This document shows, piece by piece, positions 1,712-47,617 of a stretch of 64,000 bases of DNA. A program made the position numbers and the translations under genes. This DNA comes from Escherichia phage vB_EcoM-pEB20: the sequence record OP114733; one strand, given 5' to 3'. Position 1 is the stretch's first letter, and every line of letters starts with the position of its first letter. A model generated the notes under the pieces. It was not told where the DNA came from, made no database searches, and was given only the letters and a program-made list of their open reading frames with translations.

Positions 1712-3280
1712 TTAGATGCCTTTTACATATACACGGCGGAAGTAAGCGTTCTTACCAAGGCTGTTCAGGATAGACGGCATACCGGACTGGATGCGAGCAC
1801 CTGGAGCCTGCAGGGAACTTTCAGCAAACGGGTTAACACCGATACCGTAACGAGTTTTAAAGCCCATTACCGGCTGGAAGTTCTTAGGATCGGAACCACG
1901 CAGTGGGGTAAGTGCAACGTAAGGAGCATAGTAAATACCTGCATCCATTTCGTTAGCGCCTTTGTAACCAACGGTGAAGTAATCCTGTTTAGCATACTGG
2001 TCGATGTATACGCGGTATTTACCACCAAGTACACCGGCAAATACAGACTTAGTAGTGTCGGTATTAAAACCAGAAGCCAGACCCTGTGCAGCGTAAGAAA
2101 TACCAGTATCAACTGAAGCCAGTACGTTAACTACGTTACGGGAAGCGATAATGAAGTTACCTTCACCACGACCGGTTTGACGAGCAATTTCAACTGCTTC
2201 TTTATCAATCTGGAACAACAGAGCTTTAAAGCTTTCGCCGGCCCAACGAGCACCACGGATATCAATCGGGTCCTGGAAGTCAAATACACCAGCTTTAGAA
2301 CCAACGATATTAGTCATACCAGATTTACCAACCTGAGCGGAGTAGTTAATCCAGTCAACAACTTCACGGTTGATTTCCAGCATAATTTCAGTAGCAAGAA
2401 TACCACTCAGTTCAGCATCAGCATCCATACCGTGTACTGCACGGAGGTCTTGTGCCAATTCGATAGAGTAAGCTGCTTTCAGCTGACGAGATTTAGCTTC
2501 AATAACTTGTTTGTCGATACGGAAGCCCATTTCGTTCCACGGGTTGTCGGTAGAACCATTGAAGCCTTCCTGAAGTTCAGCGATAGAAGTAGCCATACCT
2601 TCAGCGATTTCTACCAGTGCGCCAGCTTCCATTTGTTTGATAATTTCTGCATCTAATTTAGCTGCATCATCAGCACTTGAACTAATTGTTACTTGAGCAG
2701 AAGCTTGCAGATATACAGTACCAGTTTCCTGGAAGAAGTGAGTATAGATATCACCTACTGTGGTTTGTGTGCTAGCAGCCAGAGCTGGGAATTTCTTAGC
2801 AGCACCCTGACCAGAGAACATCGCATCTGGAGCATACATCGGATGGAAAGCTTCTTTAGCGCCAGCAGCGATAGGGTCTTTACCATATACTGCACGGAGA
2901 GCAAATACCTGACCGGTAGGGCTGTTCATAGGCTGAACACCACAAATATCAAAAGCGATCAGATTAGGAATAGCACGACGAACCATACCCATAACTGCTG
3001 GCCCAATCTGGGTTACTGCACCAGAGGTTTGACCTGCTGCGATGTTCTGAGCATTATAACCATGGTCACCACCAATTTCAGCTTCGGTCAAGAAAGAACC
3101 AAATGCCTGAGCGATTTTCTCGTCTTTATATTCAGGGGATACTTCGAAATCTTTTTCCTGGTTTTCGAAGATTTTAGCGATAATAGCCTGCTTGCTATTA
3201 GCGATTTCCGGCAGGCCTTCACCTTCCAGCAGTTCTTTCCATTTGTCTACGAGCTGAGCTTTAGTTTTGATAGTAGTCAT
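1712..3280 (-). CDS. 23: major capsid protein gp23
   Basis: 522 aa; N-terminus MTTIKTKAQLVDKWKELLEGEGLPEIANSKQA matches T4 gp23 from memory. Confidence 0.95.
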   Translation of the reverse strand: MTTIKTKAQLVDKWKELLEGEGLPEIANSKQAIIAKIFENQEKDFEVSPEYKDEKIAQAFGSFLTEAEIGGDHGYNAQNIAAGQTSGAVTQIGPAVMGMVRRAIPNLIAFDICGVQPMNSPTGQVFALRAVYGKDPIAAGAKEAFHPMYAPDAMFSGQGAAKKFPALAASTQTTVGDIYTHFFQETGTVYLQASAQVTISSSADDAAKLDAEIIKQMEAGALVEIAEGMATSIAELQEGFNGSTDNPWNEMGFRIDKQVIEAKSRQLKAAYSIELAQDLRAVHGMDADAELSGILATEIMLEINREVVDWINYSAQVGKSGMTNIVGSKAGVFDFQDPIDIRGARWAGESFKALLFQIDKEAVEIARQTGRGEGNFIIASRNVVNVLASVDTGISYAAQGLASGFNTDTTKSVFAGVLGGKYRVYIDQYAKQDYFTVGYKGANEMDAGIYYAPYVALTPLRGSDPKNFQPVMGFKTRYGIGVNPFAESSLQAPGARIQSGMPSILNSLGKNAYFRRVYVKGI

Positions 3281-3297
3281 TTGTGTTAACCTTTAAA

Positions 3298-4110
3298 TTA
3301 GAAACGAGATGCGACTTTCGCATATAAACTTACATTAGAATTCTGTTCTACCTGAGTTGTGGTAGTGTCAACTGCTTCGGCAACAAAATTAAGACCGGCA
3401 GCGTCATTGTCAACTGTATTTATACTTTCGGTAATAGCGGCTTCTTCTTTAGTAGAACCTTTAACCATTTCTACAATAGCAGTTAACTTAGTACCAAATG
3501 CGTCAGAATAATCCATACCTTCAACCAGGCCAATAACTTTTTCTTTCTGAGATTCAGTCAGGTCTTTTACGCTTTCATTAATAGCGGTTTCACGCTGAAC
3601 GTAATTGATATATGCATCACGTTTGGTAACTTCTTCGAACAAACGAGCGGTTTCTTCTTTATGTTCGGCCAGCTCTTCTTCCATTTCTGCTACAACATCT
3701 ACAGATTCTTCTGGAACAACAACGTTATGTTCAACAAACAGTTCTTTCAGACCACCAAGCATGGATTCGAACAAATCAGCTTTAATGCCTTTATCAACTG
3801 CGATTTGGTTTTCTGCGAGCCATTCTTTTGCAAGATGGTCCAGGAATTTAGAAGCTTGTTCAGCCAATTTTTTATCAGCTTTCTCTTCAGCATCTTCTTT
3901 AGCCTTTTCAACTTCTTCTTCGGCCTTTTCGGCGATGGCTTTGATATGAGATTCAGCCAGTTTGACTGCTTCCTGCTTAACGGTGGCTTCGAATACAGTG
4001 CTGAAATTAGCTTTAACGTCCGGAGACAGTTCTACTGATTCGAAAACACTATTAAGAGCAACTGAAGTCTCGATGTTCTGAGCTTCTTTCAAAAGTTGTT
4101 CTTTGATCAT
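3298..4110 (-). CDS. 22: prohead scaffolding core protein gp22
   Basis: 270 aa acidic, Glu/Lys-rich coiled-coil protein between 21 and 23. Confidence 0.85.
   Translation of the reverse strand: MIKEQLLKEAQNIETSVALNSVFESVELSPDVKANFSTVFEATVKQEAVKLAESHIKAIAEKAEEEVEKAKEDAEEKADKKLAEQASKFLDHLAKEWLAENQIAVDKGIKADLFESMLGGLKELFVEHNVVVPEESVDVVAEMEEELAEHKEETARLFEEVTKRDAYINYVQRETAINESVKDLTESQKEKVIGLVEGMDYSDAFGTKLTAIVEMVKGSTKEEAAITESINTVDNDAAGLNFVAEAVDTTTTQVEQNSNVSLYAKVASRF
3417..3424 (-). promoter_or_regulatory. candidate late promoter for gene 23 inside 3' end of gene 22
   Basis: rc TATAAATA about 137 bp upstream of gene 23 ATG; no closer match found. Confidence 0.3.
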
Positions 4111-4140: not shown

Positions 4141-4148
4141 TATTTATA
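4141..4148 (-). promoter_or_regulatory. late promoter TATAAATA for gene 22
   Basis: rc TATAAATA 31 bp upstream of gene 22 ATG, overlapping gene 21 stop. Confidence 0.5.
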
Positions 4149-4785
4149 ATGCTTTTAAACTCTCTGCGAGAGCTTTAAATGCTTCGTCAGCACTGTTTTT
4201 GGTGATTTCCACCGAATTTTCTGATTCTGATATTTGTTTAGGAGTAACCCAAGCATCTGGAGCAGAAGGTCCCCATACGGCATCTACGCCGACGGTTAAT
4301 TTAAATCCTTCGTTCACGATACGGTACCCTTTATTGGTGTCGGTTAAAGAACCAAGACCACGAGAGGAAACACCTGGAATCCAACCAGCTCGTATATTAG
4401 CAGCTAATTTATCGCCGGGACCATGGTCGCCTTCAATAATTCTAGCACGTCCATATACATCGTTTCCTTTCCACCACATATCTTCAATAATGATAGCGGC
4501 TTGCATAGGGTCAACATTTGCACGAGGTGGATGATTTAATTCTCCAAGGGCTTGTTTGGTTGCGACTTGTTCTTTAATATAGTCGCTTACGGCTTTTTCC
4601 AAAACGCGTTTAGGATATAAACGTTTATTTCGGTTAACAACCTCTGCCTGAAGAAAAATACCTTCTATATAAAGCCCTGGTTTTAAGCCAGAATCTTTTC
4701 CATCATGAGATTCCAACATTGGAACGCCATCAATAATCTCACCGGGTTGACCCCAAGTTTCAATAAGTAACTCGGGTTTATTCAT
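4144..4785 (-). CDS. 21: prohead core protease gp21
   Basis: 213 aa; position and length match T4 gp21 (212 aa). Confidence 0.85.
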   Translation of the reverse strand: MNKPELLIETWGQPGEIIDGVPMLESHDGKDSGLKPGLYIEGIFLQAEVVNRNKRLYPKRVLEKAVSDYIKEQVATKQALGELNHPPRANVDPMQAAIIIEDMWWKGNDVYGRARIIEGDHGPGDKLAANIRAGWIPGVSSRGLGSLTDTNKGYRIVNEGFKLTVGVDAVWGPSAPDAWVTPKQISESENSVEITKNSADEAFKALAESLKAL

Positions 4786-33849: not shown

Positions 33850-34161
33850 ATGAAAACTTATCAAGAGTTTATCGCTGAAGCTACTAAAGCCGATAAAAAT
33901 TTTATTATTAACACCACCGGTCCGTTAGATGATGAATACGCTAATGCTATTATTAAGTCAATTTCTAATCAAGGCGTTGAAGTAACAAATTTCGAATATA
34001 AGAAAAATGATACTTATATGGTAATTAGTATCAAAAAAGGTTCAAAGGCTAAAATTAAATCTGCATTTGGTGTTATGCGAGTTGACCAAATTGATAACCA
34101 TGATTTTTCACAAACAGGGGTCAAACGCCAGAATACTATTTCATCTAAAGGCATAAAATAA
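33850..34161 (+). CDS. internal protein with capsid-targeting sequence
   Basis: N-terminus MKTYQEFIAE matches the T4 internal-protein CTS. Confidence 0.7.
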   Translation: MKTYQEFIAEATKADKNFIINTTGPLDDEYANAIIKSISNQGVEVTNFEYKKNDTYMVISIKKGSKAKIKSAFGVMRVDQIDNHDFSQTGVKRQNTISSKGIK

Positions 34162-34222: not shown

Positions 34223-34486
34223 ATGAAAACTTTCAACGAATTCATCTCAGAATCGTCTGGTATGAAAATTAACAAAGCGGTCAATCAGGTTATTGCTGAT
34301 ATTCTTAATTTGTATAACATTGACTTAACTCCGCATATCACGCTTGGTAACAAACGAAACTTTTTCGTATTTGACACATCCGAACTTGATGAAAATCAGT
34401 TCAATAACATTCAACGTTTTGCGAATGATAAAGGTCTTCGACACGAGCCTGGTGGCTATAAAAAATACGCAATATATTTGAAATAA
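34223..34486 (+). CDS. internal-protein-like (CTS variant)
   Basis: N-terminus MKTFNEFISE. Confidence 0.55.
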   Translation: MKTFNEFISESSGMKINKAVNQVIADILNLYNIDLTPHITLGNKRNFFVFDTSELDENQFNNIQRFANDKGLRHEPGGYKKYAIYLK

Positions 34487-36897: not shown

Positions 36898-37362
36898 ATG
36901 AAATCATATGCAGAATTTTTGACTGAACAATCTAGTTCAGATGTAAAAGCCGCTGCGATTGCAGCAATTCAAGCAGGTAAATATTCTTACAAAGACGCCT
37001 CTGATGAAGAACGTTTCCGTTTTATTAGAGATTTTAAAGCCGAAGGTTTTACTAATGCTAATACTGTTAGCCGAGTTTTTAAAAGCCTAGCTGCGTCAGG
37101 TGAATTGTTCCAGAAAGCTACAGGTAAAGCACCTGCGCCAAAAACAGACCCTAAAGCAGCTCAAGAAAAAAATATCGCCAAAGGAATTATTTCTAAGTAT
37201 GAAGCAATTCTTAAAGAGCTTTTAGTAATCAAAACAGAAGGCCAGAAACTGGCACGAGCACATAGCTTCAAAGATAATCCTCACGCTCATAGCCTTGAGT
37301 ATGTTGAAGATATCCAAAAACTTATTAAAGACCGTATCTGGTCTGCTAAACAAATTAAATAA
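36898..37362 (+). CDS. internal protein (IPIII-like) with capsid-targeting sequence
   Basis: N-terminus MKSYAEFLTE; 154 aa Ala/Lys-rich. Confidence 0.65.
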   Translation: MKSYAEFLTEQSSSDVKAAAIAAIQAGKYSYKDASDEERFRFIRDFKAEGFTNANTVSRVFKSLAASGELFQKATGKAPAPKTDPKAAQEKNIAKGIISKYEAILKELLVIKTEGQKLARAHSFKDNPHAHSLEYVEDIQKLIKDRIWSAKQIK

Positions 37363-43949: not shown

Positions 43950-44182
43950 GTATAGCAATTTACATTAAATCAGAATCATGTGATAGTTATCTGTACACAT
44001 ACGATAAAGATGTGTCAGAAGAAAAAATCAAAGACGACCTTAATATGGACCTTGATATGTTCTGTCCTATTGCAGATTACAAACTTGCGGTCTCTAATAG
44101 TGAAAGTCCATCTAAAGAAACGCGCATTGAAGAATTTATGTCCGAATTAATGGCCAAATCATGGGACCGAGATGATGAGTAA
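43946..44182 (+). CDS. hypothetical protein
   Basis: ATGA overlap with upstream stop; about 78 aa. Confidence 0.45.
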   Translation: MSIAIYIKSESCDSYLYTYDKDVSEEKIKDDLNMDLDMFCPIADYKLAVSNSESPSKETRIEEFMSELMAKSWDRDDE

Positions 44183-44630
44183 GAAAAATAAAGTGAAAGA
44201 ACTATCAGCCGGTATTATTTTCCTTACCGAAGATAAAGAATTATTCATGGGGCGTGTAACTGGTTCTCGTCCTAAAGGTTCTTTAGCTCATCGGTGGGAT
44301 ATTCCTAAAGGACGTGTCGAGCCCGGTGAATCTCCTATTGAAGCCGCTATTCGCGAATGCGAAGAAGAAACTGGGTTTACACAATATGACCCTGCCTTCC
44401 TGAAAGACCTAGGTGAACATCATTACTCAGACAATAAGAATATTCATCTGTTCCTATATACCATCCCTGTAGAGCACGAGCAATTCAGAAACAGTGTTTG
44501 TAATTCCTATCATACATTCCCAGACGGACGACAGATTCCTGAATTTGATGCATTCGCTTTAATTAAACCTTCTCAATGGGAATATGTAATGGGCAAATCA
44601 TTATATAGGGTGCTCACTACCCTCCTATAA
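44172..44630 (+). CDS. nudE: Nudix hydrolase NudE (e.1)
   Basis: Nudix box GRVEPGESPIEAAIRECEEETGF; adjacent to lysozyme e. Confidence 0.85.
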   Translation: MMSKKNKVKELSAGIIFLTEDKELFMGRVTGSRPKGSLAHRWDIPKGRVEPGESPIEAAIRECEEETGFTQYDPAFLKDLGEHHYSDNKNIHLFLYTIPVEHEQFRNSVCNSYHTFPDGRQIPEFDAFALIKPSQWEYVMGKSLYRVLTTLL

Positions 44631-44638
44631 GTAATAAA

Positions 44639-44662
44639 TACCTCCTATAAACATGGGAGGTA
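44639..44662 (+). promoter_or_regulatory. stem-loop sequestering the lysozyme ribosome-binding site
   Basis: tacctcc-tataaacatg-ggaggta pairs the SD GGAGG 5 nt before the e ATG. Confidence 0.6.
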
Positions 44663-44664
44663 TT

Positions 44665-45153
44665 ATGAATATATTTGAAATGCTTCGTAATGACGAAGGT
44701 CTTAGACTGACTTTATACAAAGACACTGAAGGCTTTTGGACGATTGGCATCGGCCATTTAGTAACAAAGAACCCGTCTTTAGCCGTAGCTAAAGCTGAAC
44801 TTGACAGAATGATCGGTCGTAAATGCAACGGTACAATTACCCTTGATGAGGCTGAAAAGCTATTTAATGAAGACGTTGATAAAGCCGTCCGCGGAATCTT
44901 GGGTAATGCTAAACTTAAACCGGTATATGATTCTTTAGATGCGGTTCGTCGATGCGCATTGGTTAATATGGTCTTCCAAATGGGTGTATCAGGCGTCGCC
45001 GGTTTTACTAATTCTCTTCGTATGCTTCAACAGAAACGTTGGGATGAAGCGGCAGTAAATCTAGCCCAATCTAAATGGTATCGTCAGACACCTAATCGTG
45101 CGAAACGCGTAATCTCAACATTTAAAACAGGAACTTGGAAAGCGTATATATGA
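44665..45153 (+). CDS. e: lysozyme (endolysin) e
   Basis: [32 protein letters not shown] matches T4 lysozyme; 162 aa by coordinates. Confidence 0.95.
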
Positions 45154-45431
45154 AAACATATAGTGAATTTTTATCAGAATCTATTCTTAACGAAGCTACT
45201 GACACATTTGCAACTAAGCTAGGTGCAGCTTTGGTTGAAGCTGAAAGTCTATTAGCACGTATTTCTGAACTTGCTAGTAAGATAGATACTCGCAAATTTG
45301 AACGTACCAGCGATATCGCTAAGCTTGAAGCCTTGTTACGTATGTGCGATAAACCGGAAGAAATCGCTAAGAACGGCTCGCTAATGAAACAACGTCTTGA
45401 AAAATATATTTCAGGCGCTTCGGAAAAATAG
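45150..45431 (+). CDS. internal protein with capsid-targeting sequence
   Basis: N-terminus [10 protein letters not shown]; ATGA overlap with e stop. Confidence 0.65.
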
Positions 45432-45432
45432 T

Positions 45433-45462
45433 GTTTACTTCCTCCAAGGACTTTGATACTAT
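45433..45462 (+). promoter_or_regulatory. early promoter with flanking inverted repeat
   Basis: GTTTAC; cctccaag ... cttggagg inverted repeat spans the -10 and includes the denV SD. Confidence 0.45.
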
Positions 45463-45489
45463 ACATTCATCAACTACTTGGAGGAAATT

Positions 45490-45903
45490 ATGACCCGTAT
45501 CAATTTAACACTTGTTTCTGAACTGTCCGACCAACATCTTATGGCTGAGTATCGTGAATTACCACGCGTATTTGGTGCAGTCCGTAAACATGTTCAAAAC
45601 GGTAAACGTGTAAAGGATTTTAAAATCTCTCCAACATTTATCTTAGGCACAGGTCACGTAACATTCTTTTACGACAAACTCGAATTTTTACGTTTACGAC
45701 AAATCGAGCTAATCGCTGAATGCTTGAAACGTGGTTTCAAAATCAAGGACACGACTGTCCAGGATATTTCCGACATCCCTGCCGAATTTCGTAATAATTA
45801 TGTCCCGTCCGAAGCGTCCATTGCGATAAGTCAAGCACGCTTAGATGAAAAAATTGCTCAACGTCCGACTTGGTACAAATACTATGGTAAATCAATTTAC
45901 TAA
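45490..45903 (+). CDS. denV: endonuclease V (pyrimidine dimer DNA glycosylase) DenV
   Basis: [12 protein letters not shown]...[17 protein letters not shown] matches T4 DenV; 137 aa. Confidence 0.95.
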
Positions 45904-45910
45904 GGAAAAA

Positions 45911-46171
45911 ATGAAAATGTATCAAGAATTTATCACTGAAGCAGATGCCAAAGGTCCTAAATTTAAAGTTAAAGCTTTCATTGGTGATGCGGAAGACTTT
46001 GGCTCATTAAAACGTAATGGGTATTCTTTCTTAGGTGGCAATGGTAAAGAAATCAACACCTATGCAAAACGTAGTGAAATTGCTTATGTTGTAGCAAGCC
46101 CTAAAGTAGATGTTGACGATATTGGATACGATTTTAACAACTTCGGAATTATTTCTGGCGGTAAAGATTAA
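45911..46171 (+). CDS. internal protein (IPII-like) with capsid-targeting sequence
   Basis: N-terminus MKMYQEFITE; about 86 aa. Confidence 0.65.
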   Translation: MKMYQEFITEADAKGPKFKVKAFIGDAEDFGSLKRNGYSFLGGNGKEINTYAKRSEIAYVVASPKVDVDDIGYDFNNFGIISGGKD

Positions 46172-46174
46172 ATT

Positions 46175-46204
46175 GTTTACGCTTAAGTATTAATATGGTA
46201 TAAT
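46175..46204 (+). promoter_or_regulatory. T4-type early promoter
   Basis: GTTTAC then about 18 bp then TATAAT. Confidence 0.5.
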
Positions 46205-46235
46205 TACTCTATCAAAACAAACAAGGAAACAAAAA

Positions 46236-46550
46236 ATGAAAACGTATAAAGAATTTATTGCAGAATCCGCCAACCAACGCGTTGAAGGTGGTTATATTTG
46301 GATTGAACAAGTTGAGCCACCGAGCCGCACTTCTACAGGTAAATGGAAAATTACTGTTGACGGTCCTGGCGGTAAACGTAGGACTCTTAAAGAAATTAAC
46401 GGGTACTATGAAGAAGCTCTTTCGGATGCAGGAACTTACATGATGCAAATCATGATTAAAAACCCTGAAAACCGTTTTGCAGCTAAAGTCTTCCGCCGTA
46501 TTGGTAATAAACTTTATGATGCATACTCTAAAAACTTCCCTAAAGAATAA
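46236..46550 (+). CDS. internal protein with capsid-targeting sequence
   Basis: N-terminus MKTYKEFIAE. Confidence 0.65.
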   Translation: MKTYKEFIAESANQRVEGGYIWIEQVEPPSRTSTGKWKITVDGPGGKRRTLKEINGYYEEALSDAGTYMMQIMIKNPENRFAAKVFRRIGNKLYDAYSKNFPKE

Positions 46551-46575
46551 CATAAATTAAAACAATAGGAACAAA

Positions 46576-46905
46576 ATGAAAACATATCAGGAGTTTATCA
46601 CTGAAGTTACATTATCTGCGGAACAGAAAGCTGCTATCGAAGAAGGTAAAAATCCCAAAGTAACATATAAAGTAAATAGTAAAGGCGTTTTTGATGGCTT
46701 GGTTCAAGACCCTGAATTGAAAAAAGCTCTTTCTAAAACTAATGCGTACTTTGCTCCTAAATTTAACACAGCCGGTGTACTTATTGGATTGGATGTATTC
46801 AACTCTAAAGGTGTTCTATCTAATGCCTTTGGTTATGCCGCTAACAAAATTACCAAAGCCGCATGGGAATCCAATACCAAACAAGCTCAAAAGCCTAGAG
46901 TATAA
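46576..46905 (+). CDS. internal protein with capsid-targeting sequence
   Basis: N-terminus MKTYQEFITE. Confidence 0.65.
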   Translation: MKTYQEFITEVTLSAEQKAAIEEGKNPKVTYKVNSKGVFDGLVQDPELKKALSKTNAYFAPKFNTAGVLIGLDVFNSKGVLSNAFGYAANKITKAAWESNTKQAQKPRV

Positions 46906-47077
46906 TTCTTGCCTAATAAATGGAAACGCAACCTCTCCTCATGAACGTCGAGTCCTCTGAGTGATGTACCTTTTCCAACCTGTAATAAGGTCGAGCGCAA
47001 TGCGGTAATGGGTTTACATAGCGAGTCGAAGGACCTAACATGTGCCACGGAATGGCCCAAACCTTAAGAGAAATAAT

Positions 47078-47617
47078 ATGAGAACATTTTTAACTGGACC
47101 TTATCTATCCCTGATGAATGCTTTTACACACCATTCTGATGCTAGAGTAGAAGAAATTTGTAAGAACGGTTATGTCCCGCCATTTGAAGACGTACTCAAG
47201 CAGTACTGCACACTTCGTTTAGACGGCGGCCGACAATCAGGTAAATCAATTGCTGTGACTAACTTTGCTGCTAATTGGCTGTATGATGGTGGAACAGTTA
47301 TTGTTCTTTCTAATACTTCAGCTTATGCTAAAATTTCTGCTGGCAACATTAAAAAAGAATTTTCTCGTTATTCTAGCGATGATATTCGATTCCGTTTATT
47401 TACTGATTCTGTTCGTAGTTTTATTGGCAATGAAGGTTCTAAATTCCGTGGATTAACGCTTTCTCGTATTCTGTATATAATTGACGAGCCTATTAAAGCT
47501 CCTGATATGGATAAGATTTACAATGTACATATTAAAACAGTCCAACACTGTTGCAAAAGCAAATATTGCATCGGCGGTAATGCTCGTCCTCAATTTTTTG
47601 TGATTGGAATGCAATGA
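47078..47617 (+). CDS. small P-loop NTPase
   Basis: Walker A GGRQSGKS and Walker B-like ILYIIDEP; about 179 aa. Confidence 0.55.
   Translation: MRTFLTGPYLSLMNAFTHHSDARVEEICKNGYVPPFEDVLKQYCTLRLDGGRQSGKSIAVTNFAANWLYDGGTVIVLSNTSAYAKISAGNIKKEFSRYSSDDIRFRLFTDSVRSFIGNEGSKFRGLTLSRILYIIDEPIKAPDMDKIYNVHIKTVQHCCKSKYCIGGNARPQFFVIGMQ

Follow-up and report, generated by a model that had tools for sequence, protein, structure and literature searches.

Four genes with a capsid targeting sequence around denV in Escherichia phage vB_EcoM-pEB20 are candidate internal head protein genes

Gene layout of the e-denV locus

The DNA analysed here, a window of 64,000 nucleotides from Escherichia phage vB_EcoM-pEB20 (OP114733), is RB69-like Mosigvirus DNA. 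Between e and vs.8, the canonical ipII/ipIII slot, it carries four ORFs, referred to below by their first nucleotide as 45150, 45911, 46236 and 46576, that had been predicted from the sequence to encode internal head proteins (IPs) beginning with a capsid targeting sequence (CTS), reportedly described by Mullaney and Black in 1996. All four were found on the forward strand where they had been placed, and the description of the genes as interleaved with e and denV also holds (Table 1). The stop codon of e overlaps the ATG of 45150 (ATGA at 45150-45153), and a purine-rich ribosome-binding site precedes each of the four ORFs by 5-9 nt. At least 66 sequenced phages have the same arrangement of four genes. 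Among close relatives, APCEc01, JK36 and AlbertHofmann (Bas47) match the locus with DNA identity of 98% or more. The locus resembles that of T4 in its e-vs.8 position, its similarly small proteins and the same protease and scaffold partners; unlike T4, with two genes, the window has four, three of which lie downstream of denV and not upstream of it. As a separate observation, an inverted repeat at 45439-45486 spans the Shine-Dalgarno sequence of denV.

Table 1. Features of the window discussed in the text
Feature	Coordinates	Strand	Remarks
gp22, scaffolding core protein; core targeted by CTS	3298..4110	-	Pfam T4_CASP, E 1.5e-89
gp21, prohead protease; expected remover of CTS	4144..4785	-	Pfam Peptidase_S77, E 3e-107
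CTS gene, Ip7-like, ipI locus	33850..34161	+	phrog_2667; mogra homologue annotated 'internal head protein 7'
CTS gene, Ip9-like, ipI locus	34223..34486	+	phrog_7673; annotated 'Ip9 putative internal head protein'
Seventh CTS gene (MKSYAEFLTE), 3' of tRNA genes	36898..37362	+	phrog_2280, unknown function; mogra_134, hypothetical
e, T4-type lysozyme; left conserved flank	44665..45153	+	RB69 e, 'similar to T4'
IP gene 1, = RB69 ORF127c, Ip5 family	45150..45431	+	93 aa; phrog_3499 internal head protein, E 2e-46
denV (endonuclease V), conserved; divides IP locus into two slots	45490..45903	+
IP gene 2, RB69 ORF125c family, CTS MKMYQEFITE	45911..46171	+	86 aa; phrog_2667, phrog_35655
Early-type sigma-70-like promoter (TTTACG, 17 nt spacer, TG-TATAAT), 5' of Ip10 gene	46176..46204	+	10/12 matches, extended -10; called by consensus match only
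IP gene 3 = Ip10, = RB69 ORF124c, CTS MKTYKEFIAE	46236..46550	+	104 aa
IP gene 4, RB69 ORF123c family, without IP name, CTS MKTYQEFITE	46576..46905	+	109 aa

The early-type promoter belongs to a conserved spacer that travels with the IP cassettes, and similar promoter and stem-loop motifs are found 5' of 33850 and 34223. No exact match to the canonical late promoter (TATAAATA) was found within 44600-46900; upstream of e there are only one-mismatch variants, and such matches are found at the chance rate across the window. With no canonical late promoter in the locus and an early-type promoter before 46236, we infer expression in time for prohead assembly by analogy with promoter and stem-loop elements of this type described at T-even IP loci (PMC2839356). 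We also considered whether a conserved element 3' of 46905, at about 46920-47068, is a structured RNA and rejected this: it has no Rfam match, its folding z-scores are no better than those of shuffled sequences on either strand, and the consensus structure across nine genera is weak.

Census of CTS genes in the window

A six-frame scan of the 64 kb gave exactly seven CTS matches, all on the forward strand and all at ORF starts, compared with a mean of 0.005 matches in 200 shuffles of the window. Besides the four ORFs at the e-denV locus, these are 33850 and 34223, which adjoin the 57B homologue, and 36898, whose product is labelled hypothetical in relatives. Scored against MKTYQEFIAE (BLOSUM62), the seven reach 35-51 (41-47 for 45150, 45911, 46236 and 46576), whereas the best other decamer in the window scores 28 and does not stand at an ORF start. 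The predicted tally of seven CTS genes against the three of T4 (ipI, ipII and ipIII) is therefore exact. The accompanying idea of an expanded locus stands as far as the comparison with T4 goes, but the expansion is not peculiar to pEB20: in the e-vs.8 locus WG01 has four CTS genes and VR7 three, and the count for mogra is seven when all of the homologous stretch, with the ipI locus, is taken. The window also holds the genes for the two expected partners of the CTS, gp21 and gp22, which adjoin the genes for gp23, gp24 and gp20.

Targeting and cleavage residues

The CTS forms the true N-terminus of 45150, 45911, 46236 and 46576 and is read in one frame with the remainder of each protein, so the artefact against which the prediction had been hedged, a duplicated leader out of frame with the sequence behind it, is excluded for all four. 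Each product has M-K-x-Y-x-E-F at residues 1-7 and keeps Tyr4, Phe7, Leu/Ile8 and Glu10; in mutational work on IPIII, positions 4 and 7 matter for targeting and positions 8 and 10 for processing (PMC9026906). The gp21 cleavage motif, (L/I)-x-E ending at residue 10, reads LSE, ITE, IAE and ITE in the four products in gene order, and none of them (0/4) has the Asp at position 10 that would block processing. Relative to the CTS of T4 IPII and IPIII (MKTYQEFIAE), the four differ at 1-3 positions, with the gp21 motif the same. At the DNA level, 18-27 of the 30 nt are identical between pairs of the seven CTSs, and the residues at the required positions are kept although the codons differ, which points to selection on the peptide and not on the DNA alone.

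These codon differences bear on a reading that we consider very unlikely, namely that some of the four proteins are not packaged, their CTS being an inherited recombination linker or leader, and that they act in the cytoplasm after early expression. Such a reading would fit the early-type promoter directly 5' of 46236 and the lack of an exact late promoter in the locus, as well as the demonstrable use of CTS-coding DNA as a recombination joint (see below) and the activity of IPIII and IPII when expressed in the host, seen for IPIII with the CTS deleted. It does not account for targeting and cleavage residues that are the same in all seven proteins while their codons vary; in T-even phages, IP loci with packaged products are likewise reported to have early-type promoter elements (PMC2839356), and both the protease and the scaffold partner are encoded in the window.

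Protein families and predicted folds

PHROGs assigns three of the four products to 'internal head protein' families. The mature parts of the four comprise 76-99 residues with 10-14% Lys, and only those of 46236 and 46576 are basic. The 45150 product, with a mature part that is predicted to be helical by composition (pI 6.3), has homologues in 496 phage records and is 47-52% identical to the Ip5 proteins of T2 and RB32. Its resemblance to Ip5 (T2, RB32 and Bas37_0261) extends through about 84 residues and takes in the helical core as well as the C-terminal EIAKNGS-MK-RLE motif. It differs from Ip5 in position, between e and denV and not at the ipI locus, and in its leader: Ip5 has a 15-residue IPI-like propeptide (MKTFKEFATKTTITE), whereas in 45150 a standard CTS precedes a possible second gp21 site, L-N-E, at residue 15. 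In the alignment with Bas37_0261 (47% identity), SILNE of 45150 falls on the TTITE site. Homologues of the 45911 product (mature pI 6.5) are present in 217 records, and RefSeq already labels this family 'internal head protein'.

For 46236 and 46576 the original prediction recognised no counterpart. This was wrong for 46236, which is Ip10, a protein named in PP01, VR7 and SP18 and tied to RB69 ORF124c in the VR7 record; identity is 96% to Ip10 of PP01 and 72% to those of VR7 and SP18, with 99-100% of the query covered, and we see no material difference between 46236 and Ip10 (PP01, VR7, SP18, 'Pol'). Gene placement does vary, with Ip10 directly after e in PP01, where denV is absent, first after denV in VR7, and frameshifted in the RB69 reference copy. 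The 46576 family is almost confined to Mosigvirus and Dhakavirus, and among the 60 records listed of 90 it is 'hypothetical' in 59, with none naming an internal protein. An exhaustive HMMER search of 1.84 billion representatives with the 46576 mature domain returned as relatives only its own cluster and a WG01-type cluster, the other matches being repetitive giant proteins. Both mature domains gave confident models (pLDDT 79 and 85) of small, compact domains like IPI*: a beta-beta-beta-alpha-beta-beta domain for 46236 (pI 9.6), and a small alpha/beta domain with an SH3-like beta core for 46576 (pI 9.7, 14% Lys).

The expectation that the mature regions are unrelated to one another was supported in that no homology between them was detectable, with no pairwise BLAST match better than E about 0.01 in a ten-sequence database. 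Since 46236 and 46576 both match phrog_3966 over their full length, we considered them as paralogues and rejected this: their mature domains give a BLAST E of 0.89, profile-profile comparison (hhalign) aligns only 14 CTS columns, and the predicted topologies differ. The leader that they have in common most likely explains why both fall into phrog_3966. A relationship between 45911 and 33850, which both match phrog_2667, is likewise unsupported, with no BLAST match between the mature domains. Against the mature domains of T4 IPI, IPII and IPIII, the four gave a best E of 0.2 or worse (BLAST, ten-sequence database). Sequence searches of PDB chains, Pfam, NCBIfam and PADLOC with these products returned nothing significant; no homology of the mature domains to a solved fold was detectable, and no solved structure matched the predicted fold of 46576.

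Selection and cassette exchange

The mature regions had been described as fast-evolving, but this does not agree with the substitution rates. Between diverged homologues of the four, dN/dS is 0.03-0.57 (0.18-0.44 for 45911), and in the comparison of 46576 with the near-identical RB69 copy of ORF123c, dN is 0. Judged from these values, the mature domains are under purifying selection, and the variation comes from replacement of whole cassettes.

The same data bear on whether the ORFs are decaying remnants or annotation noise, a view that would suit the RB69 reference record, where three of the four carry lesions. There a -1/+1 indel pair scrambles the CTS of ORF127c, a +1 insertion truncates ORF124c, and in ORF123c Ala replaces Glu10. 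This damage has the look of mutations from laboratory passage or of errors in old sequencing. In the window, as in dozens of independent isolates, all four ORFs are intact, their dN/dS is well below 1, and the two modelled domains are confidently predicted. Conservation and selection thus refute decay for this window, and we give the idea almost no credence.

One junction was located within the coding sequence of a CTS and another at the end of a CTS. The window is 97.7% identical to Mosigvirus phage mogra up to 46264, inside CTS codons 8-10 of 46236; past this point mogra has homologues of IPIII and IPII instead of 46236 and 46576. The Ip10 module that the window shares with PP01 (87% identity, with flanks at 72-81%) and with VR7 ends at 46605/46606, which is the end of the 46576 CTS. 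IP gene order is also permuted in VR7, WG01, CC31 and PP01, and T-even phages have been reported to carry two hypervariable IP loci with more than 30 IP variants (PMC2839356). These patterns are consistent with a cassette array in which each unit would run from a mature domain through a spacer, where an early-type promoter and a stem-loop are often found, to the next CTS, and in which units would be exchanged, gained or re-ordered through homologous recombination in the conserved CTS and spacer DNA. This resembles PeSL cassette shuffling (Arbiol et al. 2010; Repoila et al. 1994, for IP loci), where conserved regulatory or leader sequences flank variable ORFs as recombination joints, with the difference that one mapped junction of the window falls within coding DNA, at CTS codons 8-10, rather than in a promoter element.

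Proposed role in infection

Taken together, we think it probable that the four ORFs are T4-type internal head protein genes whose products are packaged, cleaved and injected and are likely to act against host defences. By precedent from T4-type IPs, each protein would be made with its ten-residue N-terminal CTS, which would bring it to the gp22-based scaffolding core during prohead assembly. There gp21 would cut after Glu10 at (L/I)-x-E, and in the 45150 product perhaps also after Glu15. The mature domains would remain in the head with the DNA and then be co-injected, and in the cell they would most likely serve as ready-made stoichiometric inhibitors of host defence nucleases. By precedent, the foremost candidates as targets would be modification-dependent (type IV) restriction enzymes active against the sugar-modified hmC DNA that these phages carry. 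Among characterised proteins, IPI* blocks GmrS/GmrD (PMC3012670), IPII blocks fused GmrSD (10.1101/2023.04.06.535777), and IPIII is required for growth of T4 on ECOR17 (PMC9391042). In the newest case of an 'orphan' CTS protein found to be a type IV restriction inhibitor, Bas37_0260 blocks McrBC (10.1101/2025.11.20.689424). Bas37_0260, from the HIDEN-SEQ preprint of 2025, is like the proteins described here in CTS (MKTYQEFIAE) and size class and comes from a polymorphic IP locus of the same kind; it is unlike them in its mature domain, and no homology to it was detectable for any of the seven CTS proteins of the window. More generally, the four mature domains lack homology to the IPs with known targets (IPI, IPII, IPIII and Bas37_0260), and none showed homology or fold likeness to a characterised defence inhibitor. 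The searchable literature yielded no virion proteomics and no N-terminal mapping, either for these four proteins or for any Mosigvirus IP.

Packaged IPs might instead have a mainly physical role, as basic, Lys-rich counter-ions for condensing, packaging or ejecting DNA with no specific host target. T4 holds about 1000 IP molecules within its DNA, with IP lysines touching DNA phosphates (PMC3012670), and the basic character of two of the mature domains (pI 9.6 and 9.7, 10-14% Lys) and the failure to find a target-specific domain in the products would both suit such a role. The other two, at pI 6.3 and 6.5, are close to neutral, in contrast to the classic IPs, which are basic; this counts against counter-ions and is also a point against the assignment as IPs itself. 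A physical role further leaves unexplained why there should be many unrelated folded domains, each under purifying selection and swapped as cassettes between genera, and all IPs with a worked-out function act as specific defence inhibitors. We therefore regard it as unlikely, and prefer the reading of the four as injected defence inhibitors. Tentatively, and with more doubt than confidence, the 46576/ORF123c family could be a class of injected protein not described before, neutralising a defence specific to the DNA of these phages; an example of such a target may be a type IV nuclease recognising arabinosyl-hmC, which would differ from the targets of IPI, IPII and Bas37_0260.

Significance

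This T4-type cluster of variable IP genes is a known system that has been described from the 1990s on, which makes the finding real but ordinary. Its principle, its locus and three of the four families had all been reported before. What is gained in practice is a corrected annotation of the ORF123c family, together with a set of candidate genes for deletion screens. Because IPs are delivered along with the DNA, they act before any phage gene expression. IPI, IPII and Bas37_0260 disarm type IV restriction enzymes, IPIII enables growth on a natural host, and the four genes are plausible candidate members of such an anti-defence arsenal in arabinosyl-hmC phages. Several close relatives are candidates for therapy or biocontrol, and knowledge of IP targets would help to explain or engineer their host range. 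If each of the seven CTS proteins does match a different defence, the locus would be a ready-made set of probes for new defences against hypermodified DNA.

The array of CTS genes

A six-frame motif scan of the 64 kb found exactly seven starts carrying the T4-type N-terminal decamer, or capsid targeting sequence (CTS): four between e and vs.8, and those at 33850, 34223 and 36898. Chance expectation, from 200 shuffles, is a mean of 0.005 matches, and in a comparison with the T4 decamer the seven starts score 35-51, with the next best decamer at 28. The original prediction had counted seven CTS genes against three in T4 (IPII and IPIII, both starting MKTYQEFIAE, and IPI, starting MKTFKEFTST), and for this window the count is correct. 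In all four genes of the e-vs.8 locus the CTS lies in frame with 76-99 further codons behind a purine-rich ribosome-binding site (the ATG of the 45150 gene overlaps the stop of e), which excludes the possibility that the shared N-termini are a duplicated leader out of frame with the downstream sequence.

Coordinates of the CTS genes and neighboring features
Feature	Coordinates	Strand	Remarks
CTS ORF 1 (RB69 ORF127c)	45150-45431	+	
CTS ORF 2 (ORF125c family)	45911-46171	+	
CTS ORF 3 (ORF124c/Ip10)	46236-46550	+	PP01 locus equivalent 2501-2818
CTS ORF 4 (ORF123c family)	46576-46905	+	start MKTYQEFITE
ipI-locus gene, Ip7-like	33850-34161		
ipI-locus gene, Ip9-like	34223-34486		
Seventh CTS gene	36898-37362		start MKSYAEFLTE, 154 aa
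Inverted repeat	45439-45486		15 nt, TTCCTCCAAGGACTT / AACTACTTGGAGGAA
Non-coding element	46920-47068	+	
Damaged RB69 reference gene	2051-2332		equivalent of 45150
Damaged RB69 reference gene	3135-3407		equivalent of 46236
Damaged RB69 reference gene	3476-3805		equivalent of 46576

In previous work on IPIII, positions 4 and 7 of the CTS proved important for targeting and positions 8 and 10 for cleavage, with Asp10 blocking processing (PMC9026906); Tyr4, Phe7, Leu/Ile8 and Glu10 are kept in all four proteins. The window also encodes the head machinery, namely gp24, gp23, the gp22 scaffold, the gp20 portal and the gp21 prohead protease (Peptidase_S77, E 3e-107). Packaging and processing of the four products as internal proteins (IPs) is, in our estimation, highly probable. 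Our literature search turned up no proteomic data for them.

The ipI locus contains one Ip7-like and one Ip9-like gene and no T4-type IPI. Since RB69 itself has been reported in papers to have an IPI differing from that of T4 at only four residues, this locus also differs between close Mosigvirus relatives. The 36898 gene is in neither of the classical IP loci but downstream of tRNA-Met and tRNA-Arg; ahead of it are a run of T residues, as is typical for the tail of a terminator, and a AATAAATA motif. Its relatives are annotated as hypothetical (phrog_2280, of unknown function), and we regard its product as another unflagged IP candidate.

Identity of the four products

The 46236 product, said in the original prediction to have no counterpart, is by its sequence Ip10: it shares 96% identity with the PP01 'Ip10 internal head protein' and 72% with Ip10 of VR7 and SP18, and the VR7 record (HM563683) already notes the similarity to RB69 ORF124c. 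The 45150 product belongs to phrog_3499 ('internal head protein') and shares 47-52% identity with Ip5 from T2, RB32 and Bas37_0261; in the alignment its SILNE falls opposite TTITE, where Ip5 is cleaved, suggesting a second gp21-type cut after Glu15. For the 45911 product, in the RB69 ORF125c family, RefSeq gives 'internal head protein'. The 46576 product falls in the RB69 ORF123c family, for which none of the 60 matches listed of 90 is labeled 'internal protein', nearly all being 'hypothetical protein'. With its mature domain as query, an exhaustive HMMER search without profiles, covering 1.84 billion representative proteins, retrieved only its own cluster and one other, WG01_115 of Dhakavirus phages, which is 33% identical and also starts MKTYQQFITE.

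All four ORFs are real genes. Their families occur in 496 (45150), 217 (45911), 189 (46236) and 90 (46576) phage records, including many independent isolates, and dN/dS between diverged homologues, CTS codons excluded, was 0.06 for ORF127c, 0.18-0.44 for the ORF125c family, 0.03-0.34 for Ip10 and ~0.55 for ORF123c against its Dhakavirus relative. AlphaFold, applied to the two least-annotated products, gave confident predicted models for Ip10 (pLDDT 85, pTM 0.77) and the 46576 product (pLDDT 79, pTM 0.69).

The RB69 reference (NC_004928 / AY303349) has lesions in three of the four IP genes when compared with the window and with other isolates: a -1/+1 indel pair scrambles CTS residues 5-13 of ORF127c (MKTYMNFYQNLSLNE), a +1 G insertion truncates the C-terminus of ORF124c (90 aa vs 104), and the cleavage-site Glu10 of ORF123c is Ala. 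These lesions reflect either errors in the 2003 sequence or the loss, during laboratory passage, of genes that are dispensable.

Cassette replacement at the locus

At the level of BLAST, profile-profile comparison and predicted topologies, the mature regions are unrelated. All-against-all BLAST of the mature parts with T4 IPI, IPII and IPIII gave a best E of ~0.01 (ten-sequence database), and the structure predictions, which had been proposed as a check, yielded topologies unlike each other for Ip10 and the 46576 product. PHROGs places Ip10 and ORF123c jointly in phrog_3966, yet in profile-profile comparison the CTS alone aligns. PDB sequences, Pfam, NCBIfam and PADLOC gave zero matches.

Positions 44600-47100 match RB69-like coliphages (genus Mosigvirus; RB69 at 98.0%, JK36, APCEc01 and others) at 97-99% identity over the full length, and at least 80% of this stretch is present in one place in 66 records. 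The RB69 order is nudE, e, ORF127c, denV, ORF125c, ORF124c, ORF123c, vs.8; the T4 counterpart holds e, ipIII, ipII, denV and vs.8. In the sister phage mogra, also a Mosigvirus, collinearity (97.7% identity) spans 44000-46264 and ends within CTS codons 8-10 of the 46236 gene; beyond that, mogra has IPIII and IPII homologues at the site of Ip10 and ORF123c, with homology resuming from 47039. IP content and order also vary between genera (T4: e, IPIII, IPII, denV; PP01: e, Ip10, IpIV, no denV; VR7: e, denV, Ip10, ORF125c-like, Ip7; WG01: e, IP, IPIII, denV, ORF123c-like, IP; CC31: e, IP, denV, Ip10). The Ip10 segment shared with Tequatrovirus PP01 is 87% identical in DNA between flanks of 72-81%, and the match stops where the CTS of the following gene ends, at 46606 (46605 for VR7). 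The array thus varies through replacement of cassettes, for which the conserved CTS and spacer DNA serve as the recombination joint, and not through rapid divergence of resident genes, so 'fast-evolving' was the wrong description. Given 96-98% Ip10 protein identity between Mosigvirus and Tequatrovirus phages (dN 0.017, dS 0.54) and the DNA contrast with the flanks, the alignments suggest that this cassette moved laterally between genera with different DNA sugar modifications.

Early-type promoter motifs lie upstream of 33850, 34223 and 46236 (two with stem-loops), with a weaker one upstream of denV; no exact late promoter was found within the locus. The inverted repeat just upstream of denV (87% complementary) contains the denV Shine-Dalgarno GGAGGA inside its 3' arm, so that a hairpin at this site could block the start of denV translation.

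The interval separating the last IP gene from vs.8 holds a sequence-conserved non-coding element with the core CCAACCTGTAATAAGGTCGAGC(G/C)C-AAGTGCGGTAATGGG plus CATGTGCCACGGAATGGCCC, near-invariant in Mosigvirus, Tequatrovirus, Gaprivervirus, Dhakavirus, Karamvirus, Jiaodavirus, Gelderlandvirus and Mosugukvirus. With a 94-nt probe, 952 phage records were matched, nearly all of which have no annotation there; the Klebsiella phages do so at 86-89%, seemingly more than expected of a non-coding spacer across genera so far apart. The element does not preserve its reading frame, and in T4 it falls within the annotated N-terminal extension of vs.8; covariation is weak, with no Rfam match and no thermodynamic signal on either strand. 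A short ORF upstream of vs.8 (MCHGMAQTLREII) terminates at the start of vs.8, in an ATGA overlap.

Likely function

All IP functions found so far are counter-defence: IPI* inhibits GmrS/GmrD (PMC3012670), IPII inhibits fused GmrSD/BrxU (10.1101/2023.04.06.535777), growth on ECOR17 requires IPIII, which works without its CTS when host-expressed (PMC9391042), and the orphan CTS protein Bas37_0260 inhibits McrBC (10.1101/2025.11.20.689424). RB69-type phages have arabinosyl-hmC DNA that some GmrSD enzymes cut (PMC6024577). With these precedents, the best-supported hypothesis is that the four products would be injected inhibitors of modification-dependent nucleases. Neither sequence nor fold gave a functional clue for the four, and the seven CTS proteins all lack similarity to Bas37_0260 (MZ501089). 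The main rival, a generic DNA-counter-ion role, is favored by the basic character of two products, but the other two are near-neutral and the cassette pattern also speaks against it; we lean slightly towards specific anti-defence as the main role.

The IP system is already described: two hypervariable IP loci are on record in T-even phages, and Arbiol et al. 2010 (PMC2839356), who also summarise the work of Repoila et al. (1994), give 'more than 30 known variants' of IPs after Comeau et al. 2007. The finding is therefore a rediscovery. The original interpretation was largely right, but it was not new and erred on Ip10 and on the mode of variation. The sole annotation-level gain is that the ORF123c and 36898 families should be flagged as IP candidates.
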